A stretch of 58,914 bases of DNA from Candidatus Limnocylindria bacterium (lineage in GTDB: Bacteria; Chloroflexota; Limnocylindria; QHBO01). This document shows positions 13,676 through 47,737 of the stretch, piece by piece. Under the pieces are notes generated by a model. It did not search any database and was not told where the DNA came from. It saw only the letters and a program-made list of their open reading frames with translations. Position numbers and translations under genes: made by a program. The stretch is from positions 1 to 58,914 of the forward strand of contig JBIOTW010000037.1 in the NCBI GenBank assembly GCA_044866355.1, given 5' to 3'. The first letter of the stretch is position 1. Each line of letters begins with the position of its first letter.

Positions 13676-14584
13676 ATGGAATCCATCATCCCCATCATCA
13701 TCCTGGTCGTCGCGCTGGCCGTCGTGCTGTGGCTGCTGTACAGCGCCATCCACATCGTCCGCGAGTACGAGCGCCTGGTCGTCTTCTTCCTGGGCCGGCT
13801 CCAGGGAGCCCAGGGCCCGGGGCTGGTGCTGCTGATCCCGGTCATCCAGCAATCGGTCAAGGTGGATCTGCGTGAGCGATTCCTGGAGATTCCCCAGCAG
13901 AGCTGCATCACCAAGGACAACGCTCCAATCAGCATCGACTTCCTGGTCTATTCCAAGGTCTTCGAGCCGGAGACGACGGTGACCCAGGTGGTGGACTTCA
14001 CGGGCGCCTCGCAGGCGCTGGCTGCGACCACCCTGCGAGCCGTGATCGGGGACATCCCATTGGACGACGTGCTGGCCAAGCGGGAGGAGATCAACACCAT
14101 CCTGCGCACCAAGCTCGACGAGACGACGCACCGCTGGGGCGTCAAGATCACGACTGTCGAGATCCGCGAGATCGTCCCGCCGCGCGACATCCAGGACGCC
14201 ATGAATCGCCAGATGAGCGCCGAGCGCAACCGGCGGGCGGTGATCACCGAGTCGGAGGGCACGCGGCAGGCCTCGATCAACGTAGCCGAGGGTGACAAGC
14301 AGAGCACCATCCTGCGGGCCGAGGGTGACAAGCAGAGCGCCATCCTGCGGGCCGAGGGCGAGCGCCAGGCCCAGGCTCTGCGGGCCGAGGGATACGGCAC
14401 GGCCCTGACTACGATCTTCGGGGCGGCCAGCGGAGTGGACGAAAAGACGATGCAGATTCAGTACCTCGAGGTCCTCAAGTCGCTTGCCAACTCCGAGAGC
14501 AAGACCTGGGTGGTGCCGATGGAGCTGACCGATCTGACGCGCCGGATTGGCGCCTCCCTGATCGGCGGTTCGGAGGATCGCTGA
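13676..14584 (+). CDS. SPFH domain protein (QmcA/paraslipin-like)
   Basis: VREYERLVVFFLGR, ITKDN, WGVKITTVEI and AMNRQMSAER motifs. SD GAGGAGG. Confidence 0.92.
   Translation: MESIIPIIILVVALAVVLWLLYSAIHIVREYERLVVFFLGRLQGAQGPGLVLLIPVIQQSVKVDLRERFLEIPQQSCITKDNAPISIDFLVYSKVFEPETTVTQVVDFTGASQALAATTLRAVIGDIPLDDVLAKREEINTILRTKLDETTHRWGVKITTVEIREIVPPRDIQDAMNRQMSAERNRRAVITESEGTRQASINVAEGDKQSTILRAEGDKQSAILRAEGERQAQALRAEGYGTALTTIFGAASGVDEKTMQIQYLEVLKSLANSESKTWVVPMELTDLTRRIGASLIGGSEDR
14285..14383 (+). repeat. 33-bp in-frame tandem repeat (AEGDKQSxILR-like x3) in the SPFH gene
   Basis: GCCGAGGGTGACAAGCAGAGC(A/G)CCATCCTGCGG twice plus one degenerate copy. Confidence 0.85.
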
Positions 14585-38283: not shown

Positions 38284-39369
38284 ATGGCGCGCGTGGTGGC
38301 CGCCATGAGCGGCGGGGTCGACTCTAGCGTGGCCGCGGCCCTGCTGGCCCGCGAGGCTGGCGCCGGCGGGGACGAGGTGGTCGGCGTCTGGATGCGGACC
38401 CACCCGGATCGAGGCGAGGGCTGGGAGCCGCGTCGCGGCTGCTGCTCCACCGAGGCGGCCGACGACGCCCGGCGCGTCGCGCAGCGCATCGGTATTCCGT
38501 TCTACATCCTCAACGTGGAGCCCGAGTTCGGCGCCGAGGTCATCGACGCGTTCGCACAAGCCTACCTGGATGGGACCACGCCCAACCCCTGCCAGGCGTG
38601 CAACCAGAAGATCAAGTTCGATCTCCTCGCTCGTCGGGCCGTCGGCGCCTACGGAGCCGATGCGGTCGCCACCGGTCACTACGCCCGGATTGAGCACCGT
38701 GACGATGGGTGGCACCTCCTGCGAGCCGCGGATGGGGCCAAGGACCAGACCTACTTCCTTTGGAACCTGGACCAGCGCCAGCTGGCCGCCACCCGCTTTC
38801 CGCTCGGGGAGCTGACCAAGCCCCAGGTCCGGCAGATGGCTGCCGACCTGGAGCTGCCCACCGCCGGCACTCCCGAGTCCCAGGAGATCTGCTTCGTGCC
38901 GGCGGGGGACTACCGAGCGCTCCTCGCCGAACGCCGCTCGTACGTCGGGGAGTCGGGTCCCATCGTGGACGGGGACGGGCGGCAGCTTGGCACCCACACC
39001 GGGTTCGCGCACTACACGGTCGGCCAGCGGCGCGGGCTGGGTCTGGCCGGCGCCGAGCCGGTCTACGTGCGCGAGATCCGCCCCGAGACCAACGAGGTCG
39101 TGGTGGGATCCCGCGACGACCTGGCGGCGCGCCGCTTCGTCGCCGACGCGCGCCATTTCGTGGCCGGCACGCCGCCGGCCGACCGCTTCGAGGCCCGGGT
39201 CCGCATCCGCCACCGGGGAGCGGAGGTCGATTGCGAGGTCACCCTGGTCGGAACCGACCGGATGGTGGTCGAGACGACGGATCCGGTCTGGGCTCCGGCA
39301 CCAGGTCAGTCCGCCGTCCTGTACCGCGGGGAGGAGTGCCTGGGCGGAGGCCGGATCGCCCGGTCCTGA
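38284..39369 (+). CDS. mnmA: tRNA 2-thiouridine(34) synthase
   Basis: AMSGGVDSS, TPNPCQACN, ATGHY, KDQTYFL, ESQEICF and YTVGQRRGL motifs. Confidence 0.97.
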   Translation: MARVVAAMSGGVDSSVAAALLAREAGAGGDEVVGVWMRTHPDRGEGWEPRRGCCSTEAADDARRVAQRIGIPFYILNVEPEFGAEVIDAFAQAYLDGTTPNPCQACNQKIKFDLLARRAVGAYGADAVATGHYARIEHRDDGWHLLRAADGAKDQTYFLWNLDQRQLAATRFPLGELTKPQVRQMAADLELPTAGTPESQEICFVPAGDYRALLAERRSYVGESGPIVDGDGRQLGTHTGFAHYTVGQRRGLGLAGAEPVYVREIRPETNEVVVGSRDDLAARRFVADARHFVAGTPPADRFEARVRIRHRGAEVDCEVTLVGTDRMVVETTDPVWAPAPGQSAVLYRGEECLGGGRIARS

Positions 39370-39407
39370 GCCATGGTGCCTCAGCCATGAACCCTGAGCC
39401 GTGATCC
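39366..39407 (+). repeat. Imperfect 14-bp tandem repeat x3 encoding micro-ORFs MVPQP* and MNPEP*
   Basis: CTGAGCCATGGTGC / CTCAGCCATGAACC / CTGAGCCGTGATCC. Confidence 0.8.
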
Positions 39408-39706
39408 CCTGGATCATCTGGACCGTCCTGGTGGGGGCCATCAACCTGACCCTCTTCGTCGCGATCCGGGGCAGATGGGGTCGCGAGGCGATTGGGCTTG
39501 TCCTCGCGGCCCTTGCCGGAACGGCGGCCGGGGACAGCCTGGCGGGCCTGGTCGGGTTCGACCTGCTGCGGCTGGGAGAGTTCCATCTGGCCGGGGCGAT
39601 GATCGGCGCGCAGCTGGCCTTGGTGACGATCGCGGCGCTCTCGACCATCCTGGCCCCTCCGCGGACGTCTGACCGGCGACGCGACGGGGTAAGGCCGGGC
39701 CGGTAG
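39401..39706 (+). CDS. Small membrane protein, function unknown
   Basis: 101 aa with three hydrophobic helices, operonic position. Confidence 0.75.
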   Translation: MIPWIIWTVLVGAINLTLFVAIRGRWGREAIGLVLAALAGTAAGDSLAGLVGFDLLRLGEFHLAGAMIGAQLALVTIAALSTILAPPRTSDRRRDGVRPGR

Positions 39707-40030: not shown

Positions 40031-40073
40031 CCTTCATCGGTGACGACATCCGCATGCGCCTGACTGGGCGCAT

Positions 40074-42728
40074 GTGACCGGACGCATGCAGGCTCTGCCT
40101 GCTGCCGAGCTGCGCGAGCGCTACCAGCGCTTCTTCGAGGCACGTGGGCACACCCGGGTCCCGCCCGCCCCCCTACTGGCGCGAGACGACCCGACCCTGC
40201 TCTTCACGAACTCGGGGATGGTCCAGTTCAAGCGGGTCCTGACCGGCGAGGAGACCCGCGATTACAAGCGGGCCGTGGACAGCCAGCCCTGCCTGCGGGT
40301 GGCCGGCAAGCACAACGACTTCGAGGAGGTCGGCCGTACGCCCCGCCACCAGACCCTGTTCGAGATGCTGGGCAACTGGAGTTTTGGCGACTACTTCAAG
40401 ACCGAGGCCATCCACTGGGCCTGGGAATTCCTGACCCAGGACCTCGGCATCGACCCGGATCGGCTGGCCGCAACGGTCTATACCGATGACGACGAAGCCC
40501 ATCGGATCTGGTCCGAGGAGATCGGCCTGCCGGCCGATCGGCTCGTGCGCTGGGGCAACATCGCGGTCGGTGACGACCACAACTTCTGGCAGATGGCCGA
40601 CACCGGCCCCTGTGGGCCGTGCAGCGAGATCCATTTCGATCGAGGAGCCGAGTTCAGCGAGGGGCCCGACTGCATCCCCGACCATTCCGAAACATGTCCC
40701 CGCTGGCTCGAAATCTGGAACCTGGTGTTCATGCAGTTCGACCGGTCGATCGATGGAACGCTGACTCCGTTGCCCTTCCGGAGCGTGGATACCGGGATGG
40801 GACTCGAGCGCACCGCGTCCGTCCTGCAGGGGGTCGACAGCAACTACGGGACCGATCTGTTCGTCCCGATCATCGATCGGCTCCGGTTCCACCTGGGCCA
40901 CGATCCGGAGACAGTCGAGGCCGAGCGCTTCAGCTACCAGGTGGTGGCCGACCATTCGCGGGCCATGACCTTCCTGCTGGCCGAGGGAGTCCGGCCTTCG
41001 AACGAGGGCGCCGGCTACGTCCTGCGCCGCATCATGCGCCGCGCGGTGCGGCACCTCCGGCTGATGGGAATCACCCAGCCGGTGCTCGCCGAAACGTGTG
41101 CCGCGGTCATCGAGCTGATGGGACCTGCGTACCCGTATGTGGCGGAGCGGCGCGAGGACATCCTGGCCGAGGTCAACGCCGAGGAGAGGCGTTTCGCGCG
41201 GACGCTGGAGGCCGGAACCGAGCGCCTGGCGCAGCTGGTCGAGGCAGCGGGTCGAGGCGGCACGATCGGTGGGGAGGATGCGTTCAAGCTGCACGACACG
41301 TTCGGCTTCCCAATCGACCTGACGGTCGAGATCGCGGCCGAGTCCGGCGTCTCGGTCGACCGGGACGGTTTCGAGACGGCCATGGCCGCTCAGCGTGAGC
41401 GGTCGCGCGGCGACAAGCGGGCCGCGTACCTCACCGACCCGACCCTTGCCGCGCTCAGCACCGAGTTCGTCGGGTACCCGAACCAGACCCGGGCCGATGG
41501 GCTCGAGATCCTGGCCGTCCGGCCCGGGGACGCGGACACGCCGGCTGCCGTGGTGCTGGCCCAGACGCCGTTCTATGCGGAGGGAGGCGGGCAGGTCGGT
41601 GACCGCGGGCGGCTGGTGGGACCCGGCGGCGTTCTCGAGGTGAGTGACACACAGCGCGACGGGAACGCGATCGTCCACCTCGGCACCCTGGACGGTGAGC
41701 TGGCCGTGGGTGAGCGGGTCCAGGCCGAGGTCGACGAGGAGCGGCGCTGGGGCGCGGCGCGCAACCACACGGCGACCCATCTCCTGCATCGGGCCCTGCG
41801 TGACGTCCTGGGCGAGCAGGCCAAGCAGGCAGGCTCGTGGGTCGGACCCGAGGGGTTGCGTTTCGACTTCCCGGCGGACGCGCCCACGTCTCGGGAGACG
41901 CTGACCCGGGTCGAGGCGATCGTCAACGAGCAGGTTCGCCGGAACCTGGAGGTGACTCCAACCTGGATGCCGCTGGCCGAGGCGCAGACCTCGGGCGCGG
42001 ACATGTTCTTCGGTGAGAAATACCTTCCCGAATCCGTGCGGCTGGTGGCCTGCGGCGCGTACTCGCGCGAACTGTGCGGCGGCACCCACGTGGCGGCCAC
42101 CGGGCAGATCGGATCGTTCCGGATCATTGGCGAGTCGAGCATCGGTGCCGGGTTGCGCCGGATCGAGGCGGTGACCGGCGCCGGCGCGGAGCAGCTGATC
42201 GCCACCCGCCTCGACGTGCTGCGGTCCGCGGCCCAGCTGCTGGGCGTCCGCGACGAAGACGTCCCGGCTCGTGTGGAGGCACTGCTTGGTCGTCTCCGGG
42301 ACGCGGAGCGGAGCAGCGGCAGCGCACCGGCGTCAGGAGCTCGCCTGGATGCCGCGGCCGCGCTGCGCGACGCCCAGATGGCCGGTGAGACGTCCGTGGT
42401 CGTGCAGCGCTATCCCGACGCGGACGCCGCCGCCCTGCGCACGCTGGTCGACGATCTGCGCAGCGCCTCGGGGCGCTTCGTGGCCGTGGTGGCGGGCGCG
42501 TCGGACGGGCAGCCCACCCTCGTTGTCGCGGCCAGCCGCGACCTGGCCGGCGAGGGGTTTGACGCTGCCGACGTCATCCGCCAGGTGGCGCCGCTCATCA
42601 AGGGGGGAGGAGGGGGACGGGCCGACCTGGCGCAGGCCGGCGGGTCGGACTCGTCGGGCCTGGATCGCGCGCTCGCGGAGGCGACTCGTATCGCGCTCGA
42701 TTCGCTTCACGCGATCGAATCTGGCTGA
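40074..42728 (+). CDS. alaS: Alanine--tRNA ligase
   Basis: LLFTNSGMVQFK, FEMLGNWSFGDYFK, DTGMGLER, editing HTATH and ELCGGTH, GGGGG. Start GTG 40074 or ATG 40086. Confidence 0.98.
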   Translation: MTGRMQALPAAELRERYQRFFEARGHTRVPPAPLLARDDPTLLFTNSGMVQFKRVLTGEETRDYKRAVDSQPCLRVAGKHNDFEEVGRTPRHQTLFEMLGNWSFGDYFKTEAIHWAWEFLTQDLGIDPDRLAATVYTDDDEAHRIWSEEIGLPADRLVRWGNIAVGDDHNFWQMADTGPCGPCSEIHFDRGAEFSEGPDCIPDHSETCPRWLEIWNLVFMQFDRSIDGTLTPLPFRSVDTGMGLERTASVLQGVDSNYGTDLFVPIIDRLRFHLGHDPETVEAERFSYQVVADHSRAMTFLLAEGVRPSNEGAGYVLRRIMRRAVRHLRLMGITQPVLAETCAAVIELMGPAYPYVAERREDILAEVNAEERRFARTLEAGTERLAQLVEAAGRGGTIGGEDAFKLHDTFGFPIDLTVEIAAESGVSVDRDGFETAMAAQRERSRGDKRAAYLTDPTLAALSTEFVGYPNQTRADGLEILAVRPGDADTPAAVVLAQTPFYAEGGGQVGDRGRLVGPGGVLEVSDTQRDGNAIVHLGTLDGELAVGERVQAEVDEERRWGAARNHTATHLLHRALRDVLGEQAKQAGSWVGPEGLRFDFPADAPTSRETLTRVEAIVNEQVRRNLEVTPTWMPLAEAQTSGADMFFGEKYLPESVRLVACGAYSRELCGGTHVAATGQIGSFRIIGESSIGAGLRRIEAVTGAGAEQLIATRLDVLRSAAQLLGVRDEDVPARVEALLGRLRDAERSSGSAPASGARLDAAAALRDAQMAGETSVVVQRYPDADAAALRTLVDDLRSASGRFVAVVAGASDGQPTLVVAASRDLAGEGFDAADVIRQVAPLIKGGGGGRADLAQAGGSDSSGLDRALAEATRIALDSLHAIESG

Positions 42729-44490: not shown

Positions 44491-45630
44491 GTGAGCGGCG
44501 CCGACCCGTTCGCCAGCGAACGACCGGCACGCCTGGCCGCACTCCGGGCTCTCCTGGGCCGGCTTGGGCTGGACGCGATTCTGATCCAGTCGCGCGCCAC
44601 CAGCCGCTACCTGTCCGGCTTCTCCCTCCGCCGGGGCGACGAGTCCACCTCGGGCTATTCGGGCGCCTTGCTGGTGACTGCGGATCGGAGCTGGATCCTG
44701 GCTGACAACCGTTACCTCGAGCAGGCCGCGGCGGAGGCGCCTGGGTGGGAGCTGGTTCACACCGCCACGGACCTCCCGGTGGAGCTGCCGCCGCTGCTTG
44801 CCAAGAGCGGAATCCGGCGGCTCGGCCTCGAGGCAAATCGCACGACGCATGCGGCGTGGGAGGCCATTACCGCGGCCGCCCCCGCGTGCGAGCTGGTGGC
44901 GATCGAATCCGAGCTGGCCGAGCTGCGCATCCTGAAGAGCGCGGCCGAGATCGACGCCATCGGTCGGGCCTGCGCGCTGGGCGATCGGGCGTTCGACCAC
45001 CTGGTTGTCACCGTACGGCCGGGCATGACCGAACGCCGGGTGGCCCGGCTCATCGCCGAGTTCTTCGAGGACCACGGCGCCGAGGATCTCGCCTTCGACA
45101 GCATCGTGCTGGTGGGCGCCCGGGCCTCGATGCCCCACGGGACGCCGGGCGACACCCCCGTCCAGGACGGCCACGTGCTGCTCATGGACTTCGGCTGCCA
45201 GGTCGACGGGTACCGGTCCGACATGACGCGCACCGTGTTCGTCGGGGAGCCGGACCCGGTGGCGAGCCGCCGCCTGGACCTGGTGGCTGGCGCGCAACAG
45301 GCGGCCCTGGCCGCCACCCAGGTCGGGGTGCCCGCCCGCGTCCCCTACCAGGCGGCCCGCGCGTTCCTCGCCGAAGCCGGCTATCCCGACGCGTTCACCC
45401 ACGGCGTGGGGCACGGAATCGGGCTCGAGACCCACGAGCCGCCCCGCCTGAAGACCTCGGAGGCCCCGCTCCGCGCCGGCATGGTGTTCAGCGTCGAGCC
45501 GGGCCTGTACCTGCCGGGCGAGATCGGGATCCGGATCGAGGACATTGCGGTCCTCGAGGAGGACGGTCCGCGGCTGTTGACCGCCTCACCCCGCCAGGCC
45601 GTGGTCATCGGTGAGCGACAGGCCGCATGA
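44491..45630 (+). CDS. Xaa-Pro peptidase (M24)
   Basis: DFGCQVDGYRSDMTRT, HGVGHGIGLETHE, SVEPG and IRIED motifs, upstream of efp. Confidence 0.95.
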   Translation: MSGADPFASERPARLAALRALLGRLGLDAILIQSRATSRYLSGFSLRRGDESTSGYSGALLVTADRSWILADNRYLEQAAAEAPGWELVHTATDLPVELPPLLAKSGIRRLGLEANRTTHAAWEAITAAAPACELVAIESELAELRILKSAAEIDAIGRACALGDRAFDHLVVTVRPGMTERRVARLIAEFFEDHGAEDLAFDSIVLVGARASMPHGTPGDTPVQDGHVLLMDFGCQVDGYRSDMTRTVFVGEPDPVASRRLDLVAGAQQAALAATQVGVPARVPYQAARAFLAEAGYPDAFTHGVGHGIGLETHEPPRLKTSEAPLRAGMVFSVEPGLYLPGEIGIRIEDIAVLEEDGPRLLTASPRQAVVIGERQAA

Positions 45631-46187
45631 TCAGCACCGGCGACATCCGCAAGGGGATCGTGATCGAGCTGGACGGCCAGCCCGTGCGCGTCCTGGACTG
45701 GACCCACATCAAGATGGCGAGGGGGTCGGCCCAGGTCCGGCTCAAGATCCAGAACGTGCGGACGGGCGCCATCACCGAGCGCACCTTCCAGGCCGGCACC
45801 CGTTGGCCCCGGGGCCGAGTGGAGCAGCGCAGGGTCCAGTACCTGTACACCGACGGCGACGCGTATCACTTCATGGACACCGAGACCTACGACCAGTTCG
45901 CGATCAGCGCGGCCAAGCTGGGCGATGACGCCCGGTATCTCAAGGAGAACACCGACGTCTTCGTGTCGTCATACGGTGGGGAGGTCCTGGGGGTCGATCT
46001 CCCGGTCAGCGTCGACCTGCGCGTGGTCCGCACCGAGCCCGGATTCGCGGGCGACACCGCCACCGGCGCCCGCAAGCCGGCGACCCTCGAGACCGGGCTC
46101 GTGGTCCAGGTCCCCCTGTTCGTGAACGAGGGCGACCTGCTCCGGGTGGATACCCGCAGCGGCGAATACCAGACCCGGATCCAGTAG
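45627..46187 (+). CDS. efp: Elongation factor P
   Basis: HIKMARGSA loop, FMDTETYDQ, GDTA...KPATLETG and VPLFV motifs. Confidence 0.97.
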   Translation: MISTGDIRKGIVIELDGQPVRVLDWTHIKMARGSAQVRLKIQNVRTGAITERTFQAGTRWPRGRVEQRRVQYLYTDGDAYHFMDTETYDQFAISAAKLGDDARYLKENTDVFVSSYGGEVLGVDLPVSVDLRVVRTEPGFAGDTATGARKPATLETGLVVQVPLFVNEGDLLRVDTRSGEYQTRIQ

Positions 46188-46198
46188 GGCATGGTCAG

Positions 46199-46240
46199 GC
46201 CAGACCGATGACGCCAGACCGATGACGCCAGACCGATGAC
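46199..46240 (+). repeat. Perfect 14-bp tandem repeat x3 (GCCAGACCGATGAC) encoding chained micro-ORFs
   Basis: Copies at 46199, 46213 and 46227. Each contains an ATGA start/stop overlap, and the last supplies the xseA ATG. Confidence 0.95.
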
Positions 46241-47480
46241 GACGGCTCCCCAGGCCAGCGCCGGGCCTCGGGTCTGGCGGGTGTCCGACCTCAACCGGCG
46301 CGTGCGCGGGCTGCTGGACGCCGACTCCGCGCTGGCCGACGTGTGGGTCGAGGGCGAGGTCAGCGGTCCCAGCTTCCCGCCGTCAGGCCACTGCTTCTTC
46401 ACCCTCAAGGATGCGCACAGCCAGATCCGGGCGGTCCTGTTCCGGGAGGAGCTCGAGCGGGCCACGGTCCGACCCCAGCACGGGGCGCAGCTGGTGTGCC
46501 ACGGCCGGGTACGCGCCTACGAGCCGCAGGGCGTGTACCAGCTGTACGTCGAGTCGGTGACGCCGGTGGGCGCCGGCGATCTCCACGCCCAGTACGAGGC
46601 ATTGCGCGCCAAGCTCGGGGCCGAAGGGCTGTTCGAGGAGTCGCGCAAGCGGCCGCTCCCGCGCTGGCCGCGCCGGATCGGGGTCGTGACGTCTCCGGTG
46701 GGCGCGGTGTGGGACGACATCTGCACTGTGCTCCGGCGCCGCTACCCGCTGGTCGAGGTGGTCCTGTCGCCCACGGCCGTGCAGGGCGGCGTGTCCGCGC
46801 CGGCCATCATCCGTGCCCTGAAGCGCCTATACGCGGTCGAAGGGCTGGACCTCGTCATCCTGGCCCGCGGCGGGGGGTCGATCGAGGATTTGTGGGGATT
46901 CAACGACGAGCACGTGGTCCGAGCCGTGGCCGCCTCTCCGATCCCGGTCGTGGTCGGGGTCGGGCACGAGAGCGACGTCACGCTCGCCGATTTCGCGGCC
47001 GACCGGCGCGCGCCCACGCCGTCGGCGGCGGCCGAGATCGCGGTCCCCGACGGGACCCAGCTGCCATCCATCCTGACCCGCCTCAGCGAACGGTCGGCAG
47101 CGGCCACCGCCGCCCGGCTGGAGGCGGCCCGGCGAGCGGTGCGGGGCGAGGGTCGCGCCTTGGTCGGACTGCGGCCCAACCTGGAGGCCGCCCGTCAACG
47201 CGCGGCCGAGCTCCTCGATCGCGGCCACCGGACACTGGGCGCGGACCTCGCGCGGCGGCGAGTCGCTGCAGCTGGTCTGCGTGACGCGCTGCGGGCCCTC
47301 GGGCCCCTGGCCACCCTCGATCGCGGCTACGCCGTCGCGCGCCGGCCAGGTGGCATGATCCTGCGCGATCCGGCCGACGTGGCGCCCGGCGACGACCTCG
47401 AGGTCATCGTCGCTCGTGGAGCGGTCGACGCCCGCATCACCGGCGTCCGGCCGGGCGACGTCGAGGAGGCGTTGGCATGA
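46236..47480 (+). CDS. xseA: Exodeoxyribonuclease VII large subunit
   Basis: VWVEGEVS, SGHCFFTLKD, RIGVVTS, ARGGGSIEDLWGFNDE, GVGHESD and APTPSAAAE motifs. Confidence 0.97.
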   Translation: MTTAPQASAGPRVWRVSDLNRRVRGLLDADSALADVWVEGEVSGPSFPPSGHCFFTLKDAHSQIRAVLFREELERATVRPQHGAQLVCHGRVRAYEPQGVYQLYVESVTPVGAGDLHAQYEALRAKLGAEGLFEESRKRPLPRWPRRIGVVTSPVGAVWDDICTVLRRRYPLVEVVLSPTAVQGGVSAPAIIRALKRLYAVEGLDLVILARGGGSIEDLWGFNDEHVVRAVAASPIPVVVGVGHESDVTLADFAADRRAPTPSAAAEIAVPDGTQLPSILTRLSERSAAATAARLEAARRAVRGEGRALVGLRPNLEAARQRAAELLDRGHRTLGADLARRRVAAAGLRDALRALGPLATLDRGYAVARRPGGMILRDPADVAPGDDLEVIVARGAVDARITGVRPGDVEEALA

Positions 47481-47737
47481 CCGGACCCGAGCCGAACGCG
47501 ACTGAGGACCTGGCCGGCCGGCCGTTCGACGAGCTCGTGGCCGAGCTGCAGCGCATCGTTCAGACCCTCGAAGCCGGCACGGTGGGGCTCGAGGAGAGCA
47601 TCGCCCTGTACCGCGAGGGCCTCCGCCTCCACGCCGCGTGCGAGGAGCGGTTGAAGGCCGCTGAGCTGGCAATCACCGAGCTGGGTCGTCGCGGCCTGGC
47701 CGGCGCCGAGGGTCCCGAGCCGACCGCCGGCGGCTGA
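47477..47737 (+). CDS. xseB: Exodeoxyribonuclease VII small subunit
   Basis: FDELVAELQRIVQTLEAG..LEESIALYREG..L...C...L..AE. Confidence 0.95.
   Translation: MTGPEPNATEDLAGRPFDELVAELQRIVQTLEAGTVGLEESIALYREGLRLHAACEERLKAAELAITELGRRGLAGAEGPEPTAGG

Follow-up and report, generated by a model that had tools for sequence, protein, structure and literature searches.

A strain-variable array of start-codon segments between efp and xseA in a Limnocylindria genome is one instance of a genome-wide class

The window, the whole stretch of 58,914 nucleotides that was analysed, is contig C37 of a metagenome-assembled genome of a Candidatus Limnocylindria bacterium (G000; 114 contigs, 1.98 Mb, 69% GC, 91% complete), and the sequencing runs matching the DNA of the locus are labelled soil metagenome, with no RNA run listed among them. 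At the locus, a gene resembling those of M24-type Xaa-Pro aminopeptidases is followed on the same strand by efp, xseA and xseB (Table 1). The best NCBIfam matches of the first gene, to aminopeptidase and PepQ models, fall under the curated cut-offs, and its TGA overlaps the ATG of efp in an ATGA, GCATGATC. The efp product ends in RIQ*, with a TAG stop codon at 46185–46187 that is followed by GGC. Read from its ATG, xseA encodes 414 amino acids; this ATG is the sole start codon between an in-frame TGA (46209–46211) and the conserved xseA N terminus, and codons 2–12 differ from those of congeners mainly in the third position, which indicates that the frame opened at 46236 is coding.

Table 1. 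Positions of the genes, micro-ORFs and array at the efp–xseA junction, of the other start-codon arrays of the same genome, and of inverted-repeat loci in related genomes
Feature	Position	Strand	Remarks
M24-type Xaa-Pro aminopeptidase-like (pepP-like) gene	44548..45630	+	open frame from 44122; true start uncertain
efp (elongation factor P)	45627..46187	+	TIGR00038 229.8 bits, cut-off 185.8
Micro-ORF 1, MVRPDR*	46191..46211	+	start 3 nt past efp stop
Tandem array, unit GCCAGACCGATGAC	46199..46241	+	perfect; units 46199-46212, 46213-46226, 46227-46240
Micro-ORF 2, MTPDR*	46208..46225	+	both ends ATGA-overlapped
Micro-ORF 3, MTPDR*	46222..46239	+	TGA overlaps xseA ATG
xseA (exodeoxyribonuclease VII large subunit)	46236..47480	+	TIGR00237 423.2 bits, cut-off 180
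xseB	47477..47737	+	TIGR01280 62.4 bits, cut-off 35; ATG overlaps xseA TGA (ATGA)
Other array (within L112-L120)	C1 7975-8030
Other array (within L112-L120)	C53 1571-1624
Other array (within L112-L120)	C65 565-643
Other array (within L112-L120)	C24 507-558
Other array (within L112-L120)	C25 38507-38529
Other array (within L112-L120)	C95 8587-8626
Other array (within L112-L120)	C40 47401-47422
Other array (within L112-L120)	C83 985-1023
Other array (within L112-L120)	C35 21567-21611
Inverted-repeat loci just upstream of xseA	L042, L046, L056, L078, L087, L092, L096, L102		other Limnocylindria

The space between efp and xseA is taken up by a tandem array of a 14-nt unit and by three micro-ORFs that run through it. 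Tandem Repeats Finder reports the array with a period of 14, 3.1 copies, 100% matches and a score of 86; among the 51 rows that it returned for the window, only a 33-nt array at 14285–14358 (score 141) scores higher. Each unit contains the word GACCGATG, at 46204–46211, 46218–46225 and 46232–46239. Measured from each stop codon to the next start codon, the spacing along the chain is +3, −4, −4 and −4 nt. An earlier note on this DNA had described the micro-ORF chain, and its coordinates, peptides, ATGA overlaps and perfect 14-nt repeat were all confirmed. Its arithmetic, by which any number of units keeps the chain, also holds: since a unit of 14 nt (2 mod 3) has an ATGA inside it, the frame opened by every added ATG is five codons long and stops on the next ATG. 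The window contains two other arrays with a 14-nt period, one at 39365–39408 (CCTGAGCCATGATC, 3.1 copies, 76% match), where an ATG/GTG chain leads into a long ORF, and one at 40061–40088 (TGACCGGACGCATG, two copies) at the start of an ORF of about 880 codons.

The 20 nt before each of the four ATGs contain no GGAG, GAGG or AGGA, in agreement with the earlier note, which had seen no clear Shine–Dalgarno (SD) motif before xseA; the sole AGG upstream of the chain ATGs lies 11 nt before ATG 46208. An SD 4-mer precedes 28% of 171 high-confidence starts in G000, compared with 14% at internal codons, and with SD motifs so scarce its absence before xseA is ordinary, despite the canonical anti-SD sequence of relatives. 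In the genome, 227 of 1574 coding-like ORFs overlap their successor by −4, and for 316 of the 1574 the spacing is within −4 to +3 nt. Termination–reinitiation coupling at overlapping stop and start codons was reportedly the subject of work by Huber et al. in 2019. A passage of Brown & Wade (2025; PMC12548453) gives −4 to +3 nt as the spacing at which coupling is most efficient, and states that a short ORF may serve only for the delivery of ribosomes to the next gene. The xseA chain resembles such junctions in its −4 steps, preceded by a first step of +3, and the operon has plain ATGA overlaps at the two adjoining junctions. It differs in being a series of consecutive putative reinitiations through repeat-made frames of five to six codons, whereas coupling in the known case concerns one junction of two genes.

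A scan of positions 45400–46500 detected no promoter-like or terminator-like site, and efp and xseA may be co-transcribed. The predicted RNA fold of 46150–46300 (−57.4 kcal/mol, z = −0.05) was no better than those of shuffled sequences. Within it, an 8-bp complement is paired: GCCAGACC, at 46199–46206 and in the two other units, is complementary to GGTCTGGC at 46271–46278, in xseA codons 12–14. A conserved structure formed by this pairing was rejected on the z-score of the fold and on seeing no covariation when the congeners were read by eye.

The array was compared with assembled contigs from X1, X4, X5 and X6 over a 701-nt stretch around it. Both X1, which may be the source sample, and X4, a further sample from that study, have Logan contigs in which the three units recur with 0 differences. 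A contig from another study (X5; 2312 nt, depth 7.8) spans the full stretch with 6 other letters and with 28 bases missing at 46199, and thus represents a strain of ~99% identity with a one-unit allele; ATG 46191 is retained in it, and MVRPDR* then stops directly on the xseA ATG. In X6, contigs break at the array, which has at least two units there. A window that comes from a genome in 114 contigs invites the suspicion that assembly or binning has brought together three units that do not lie in one molecule, but usual assembly k-mers exceed the 43 nt of the array, no change to it is seen in the independent contigs of X1 and X4, and that of X5 carries a clean allele shorter by 28 bases, which makes such an artefact extremely improbable. 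The array is real, and its copy number is polymorphic between strains, three units against one, as the earlier note had supposed of the repeat. In public metagenome contigs, a species-specific 23-mer had 0 matches, and a 17-mer of the last unit matched 120 stretches, none like the efp–xseA junction.

The array is also derived. Among 15 other species of the genus with a match at the junction (L010–L024), 13 have a single unit and a single ...ACCGATG... start without an upstream ATG; one of the 13, G016, is an unpublished genome whose junction is identical to that of the public record L031. In G006 and G016, GCCAGACCGATGAC-GACC stands in single copy at the xseA start. The identity of the unit with this single-copy sequence of congeners indicates that xseA's own start segment was copied in place, as opposed to an element having been inserted, and the 100% identity of the units suggests a very young array and not a long-kept device. 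The ATG of micro-ORF 1 is species-specific and shared with the X5 strain; congeners have CTGG, CTCG, CTTG or GACT at its position. Where the earlier note proposed a comparison of copy number in related genomes, variation was found between strains, but the array is absent from the 13 single-unit congeners. In G001 and G013, the junction contains a second ATG-bearing word. In two genomes (G015 and G008; L021 and L023), a second GACCGATG lies within xseA codons 5–7, as ACC GAT G. There the length is unchanged and the word came from substitutions and not from duplication, which means that it can also come about point by point.

Across the class, efp is followed by xseA in 98 of the 100 loci examined, and these 98 comprise 84 distinct junction sequences. 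The efp stop codon overlaps the xseA start directly (−4) at six junctions, and at many others the spacing is 0 to +5 nt; the spacer measures 19–25 nt in the genus of the window, where it is unbridged in congeners, and reaches 407 nt at some junctions. Among the distinct junctions with a spacer longer than 6 nt, 10 of 55 are chained by micro-ORFs, against 5.1 expected from shuffled spacers, which is a weak signal. In G023, a genome of another genus, ATGAGCCG units of 8, 9 and 8 nt form a separate relay that starts on the efp TGA. Extra ATG-bearing words are found at the efp–xseA junction in four lineages (G000, G001, G013 and G023). The micro-ORF bridge from efp to xseA is recurrent, not required; single units in 13 of 15 congeners and the small number of chained junctions show that the relay is no conserved requirement for xseA. 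In the spacer of several genera, an inverted repeat, ATTCGTAAC ... GTTACGAAT, is followed by TAGG or TAGC and the xseA ATG; this shared element is possibly a small hairpin of a mobile or regulatory kind.

It could be argued that no relay operates at all, that the upstream ATGs are silent and the micro-ORFs paper ORFs, and that ribosomes start xseA de novo, nowhere but at 46236. This would agree with the lack of an SD-like element before any ATG of the chain, with the chaining of only 10 of the 55 longer junctions and with the congeners managing with an unbridged spacer. The three unit ATGs, however, share an identical 14-nt upstream context, so that nothing marks the last one alone, and silent ATGs would leave without a reason the deficit of out-of-phase arrays at gene starts that is described below. 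We regard silent micro-ORFs as very unlikely.

The xseA array is one instance of a genome-wide class and is not specific to efp or ExoVII. G000 was scanned for ATG-only chains in which ATGA overlaps link micro-ORFs no longer than 12 codons, through two links or more, to an ORF of 100 codons or more. The scan returned 17 paths at 14 loci, several of which are tandem arrays, compared with 0 in the reversed genome; one-link ATGA chains numbered 270 and 8, respectively. Nine other arrays, with periods of 8–20, belong to unrelated genes, at whose starts or stop/start junctions they lie; they precede the genes for an OppD-like ABC ATPase, a nucleotidyl transferase, ChrB_C, an aminotransferase, GNAT, ETF-alpha, TsaD, GlpX and BacA/UppP. 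Read by eye, most of the nine appear to form relays through ATGA, GTGA, TTGA or TGATG overlaps. Units at other loci of the genome (GCGCGCCTGACCGATGA, GGCCCGATGAAGGAAGT, CCGACCGATGATGACCG and CTGATGGCTGACAT) differ from that of xseA, and most, although not all, share with it only the short word CCGATG(A).

Two proposals of the earlier note do not survive this comparison. In-phase arrays before at least nine unrelated genes of the same genome speak against a device of the efp–xseA pair. Motifs that depend on EF-P include polyproline, and the earlier note had raised, as speculation, the idea that proline-containing micro-ORF peptides sense EF-P; MVRPDR and MTPDR have no PP, and the ending ...PDR* recurs at the unrelated oppC/oppD-like junction, where an array of three 17-nt units encodes MSAPDR*. 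The proline is a reading of the flank of a genome-wide word (CCA/CCT GAC CGA TGA), which makes the link to EF-P coincidental.

The periods of the arrays at gene starts are biased in phase. In a set of 288 arrays from G000 (period of at least 5, at least two copies, at least 85% match), gene starts, as called by our own GC3 filter and not by a gene caller, account for 33, and the periods of these fall into 13, 4 and 16 for 0, 1 and 2 mod 3. One of the four arrays of 1 mod 3, reported by Tandem Repeats Finder with a period of 34, is visibly a 17-nt unit. The count of 2 mod 3 against 1 mod 3 is 16 versus 4 (binomial p 0.012), or 17 versus 3 (p 0.0026), compared with 32 versus 21 (p 0.17) for arrays that are neither at starts nor coding; these are small numbers, and the contrast between start and non-start arrays is borderline (Fisher p = 0.054). 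The remaining start arrays of 1 mod 3 seem, as far as their letters tell, to have stops inside the unit, so that extra starts would end early. Adjacent CCGATGA words no more than 21 nt apart are spaced by 8, 11, 14 or 17 nt in 16 cases and by 7 or 19 nt in 2, and among CCGATGA pair periods that are not multiples of three the count is 16 versus 4 in favour of 2 mod 3. Paired words were also counted in 41 genomes and exceeded the control everywhere; the rows listed are mainly from other families, which made a period census of the genus impossible.

Events at individual junctions follow the same phase. At the oppC/D-like junction, most of 17 congeners (G016 among them) retain a bare NTGA overlap (ATGA or GTGA), and at the etfB/A-like junction most of the 17 retain a bare TGATG overlap; G000 has two additional units at each, and its arrays there are derived expansions of an ancestral stop/start overlap. 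Independent in-phase events are an 8-nt duplication common to G015 and G008, a 14-nt duplication common to G011 and G002 (ATGA then GTGA) and a 22-nt insert in G004 that forms an MRGRI* bridge, while an 18-nt duplication in G001 is in frame. At three junctions, picked because G000 has arrays there, 10 events were counted, of which 8 are in relay phase, 2 in frame and 0 out of phase; without the three index cases of G000, 5 of 7 are in relay phase (p = 0.045), with the related genomes not being independent and the numbers small.

The word GACCGATG is itself unusually abundant. Together with CATCGGTC it occurs 1173 times in the 1.98 Mb of G000, compared with 33 for the reversed control; it exceeds a 5-mer × ATG expectation 7.45-fold and is among the commonest 8-mers of the genome despite its three A/T letters. 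Its extended form is C[AT]GACCGATG[AC], and AGACCGATGA alone has 104 copies, against 6 expected, or 18 times a Markov-2 expectation. Counts per genome are 357–1687 in 24 relatives of the same family and 84–417 in other families of the class, which have larger genomes; the unpublished genome G021 contributes one family row to this count. The density of the word in G000 is similar in sense, antisense and non-coding DNA. In four congeners, 4/10, 5/10, 4/7 and 6/9 of its sites in 20 kb of the window are kept, compared with 20–28% for all 8-mers. The GACCGATG context is the top 5-mer before ATG starts (10 of 86 high-confidence starts versus 14 of 2683 internal ATG/GTG) and the top context at ATGA junctions (10 of 118), and the core of the word is found in at least 12 of the 83 best tandem arrays. 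It is not complementary to the 16S 3′ end, which has the canonical GGATCACCTCCTTTCT in three relatives; G000 has no assembled 16S. An oriented word of the Chi or KOPS kind was ruled out, the word having no strand skew and per-contig forward and reverse counts that are not overdispersed (chi2 65.5, 57 df).

Lineage-specific hyperabundant words are known from cyanobacteria (HIP1, GCGATCGC) and from Neisseria and Pasteurellaceae (DUS/USS). Like these, GACCGATG is 8–10 nt long, occurs about once per 1.7 kb on both strands, in coding and non-coding DNA, and is confined to one family; unlike them, it is non-palindromic, contains ATG, is the top start-codon context and recurs in tandem arrays. Its spread inside genes points to a cause at the DNA level; in favour of a translational side are its excess at starts and the 2 mod 3 spacing of its pairs. 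Were the word selected or driven as an uptake-type, methylation-linked or protein-binding signal, the frame geometry of the arrays would be a mere constraint. The abundance, family-wide distribution, strand symmetry, site conservation and association with arrays of the word all suit such a signal, which nevertheless has only a slender chance of being the explanation, as the word has no known binding partner and its pair periods have a translational and not a DNA-helical signature. ComEC and DprA are present in the genome, but both occur in most bacteria and so do not discriminate for an uptake word. That C[AT]GACCGATG(A) is an SD-independent initiation or reinitiation element, and its short, slippage-prone junction arrays genome-wide, copy-number-tunable modules for relaying or loading ribosomes, equivalent at the level of translation to contingency loci and serving many housekeeping genes, ExoVII included, seems quite unlikely; should the word have a translational role, the arrays may not be neutral. 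Literature searches returned no paper on start-codon arrays of 8–20 nt or on this word, which offers a separate lead, either as a new initiation context or as a new lineage-specific DNA word.

The reading that we favour, and hold to be modestly probable, is that the array is a young junction VNTR born of slippage, which has been kept because its period holds termination and reinitiation in phase, and which belongs to a class frequent in the lineage. The 14-nt start-codon segment of xseA would have been tandemly duplicated in recent time, most likely by replication slippage, from an ancestral single copy, GCCAGACCGATGAC-GAC, that congeners still carry. Ribosomes could come into the chain from efp, restarting 3 nt past its stop codon at ATG 46191, or could load directly on one or other of the identical ATGs of the units. 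Each would terminate within 15–18 nt on top of the next start and reinitiate, step by step, until ATG 46236 is reached, and with such stepwise termination and reinitiation the duplication would cost xseA little and be nearly neutral. More generally, start and stop/start junctions in this lineage of Limnocylindria would often carry GACCGATG(A) and repeatedly gain short local duplications, of which only two kinds would pass selection, those of 0 mod 3, which are in frame, and those in relay phase (2 mod 3 or self-terminating).

The extra ATG-bearing words in four lineages could alternatively point to selection for arrays at the efp–xseA junction. In that case the array might be a tunable translation module, a broader form of the attenuator of the earlier note, in which the number of units sets the flow of ribosomes to xseA, attenuating it if reinitiation is imperfect at each step or amplifying it if more units offer more sites for loading, and slippage supplies selected, heritable and reversible expression variants. 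Copy numbers of three and one in strains of ~99% identity agree with a tuner, as do the recurrence of such words at this junction, the genome's commonest ATG-start context (10 of 86) in each unit and the fact that every allele keeps the chain, which would make the variation graded and not on/off. Tuning is nevertheless unlikely: the array is not kept across species, one unit being the state of 13 of the 15 congeners, the same architecture precedes nine functionally unrelated genes, and the identical units suggest a very young array.

Contingency loci of Neisseria, Haemophilus and Campylobacter, in which slipped-strand mispairing switches genes on or off by frameshift or promoter spacing, keep the repeat tract at the locus. 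Like them, the efp–xseA array is a hypermutable tandem repeat that lies 5′ in its gene and varies in copy number between close strains. It differs in that the one-unit and three-unit alleles both keep the xseA frame and the ATGA chain, and in that the tract is not kept, 13 of 15 congeners having a single unit.

On the young-VNTR reading, nothing special follows for ExoVII. If the phase rule holds, the arrays would be natural experiments on the use of stop/start overlaps by ribosomes in an uncultured phylum, and operon junctions would tolerate no insertions but those in relay phase. Very short VNTR markers for strain typing in abundant soil Chloroflexota are a further use of the arrays.

The closest precedent is the MIRU (mycobacterial interspersed repetitive unit), with units of tens of bases, for which the original paper is said to be that of Supply et al. 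in 1997. In a passage of the source cited above (PMC12548453), MIRU-VNTRs are repeats at a gene start or junction with an internal small ORF coupled at −4 and thought to be of low cost, and the MIRU is described as one mobile element with dispersed copies. The xseA array shares with them its place at a start junction, an internal ORF coupled at −4 and a copy number that varies between strains. In contrast to a mobile element, the units here are of 8–20 nt and locus-specific except for a shared word of 7–10 nt, they are duplications of each gene's own start segment, and the host is one of the Chloroflexota, not a mycobacterium. The arrays have a MIRU-like logic without a mobile element. Two arrays with a 50-nt period, at C95 6401–6571 (3.4 copies) and C111 1890–2049 (3.2 copies), could be a longer, MIRU-like unit; that on C95 lies at a gene start and has a near-word, CAGACCGATCG, with GTGA/ATG overlaps.
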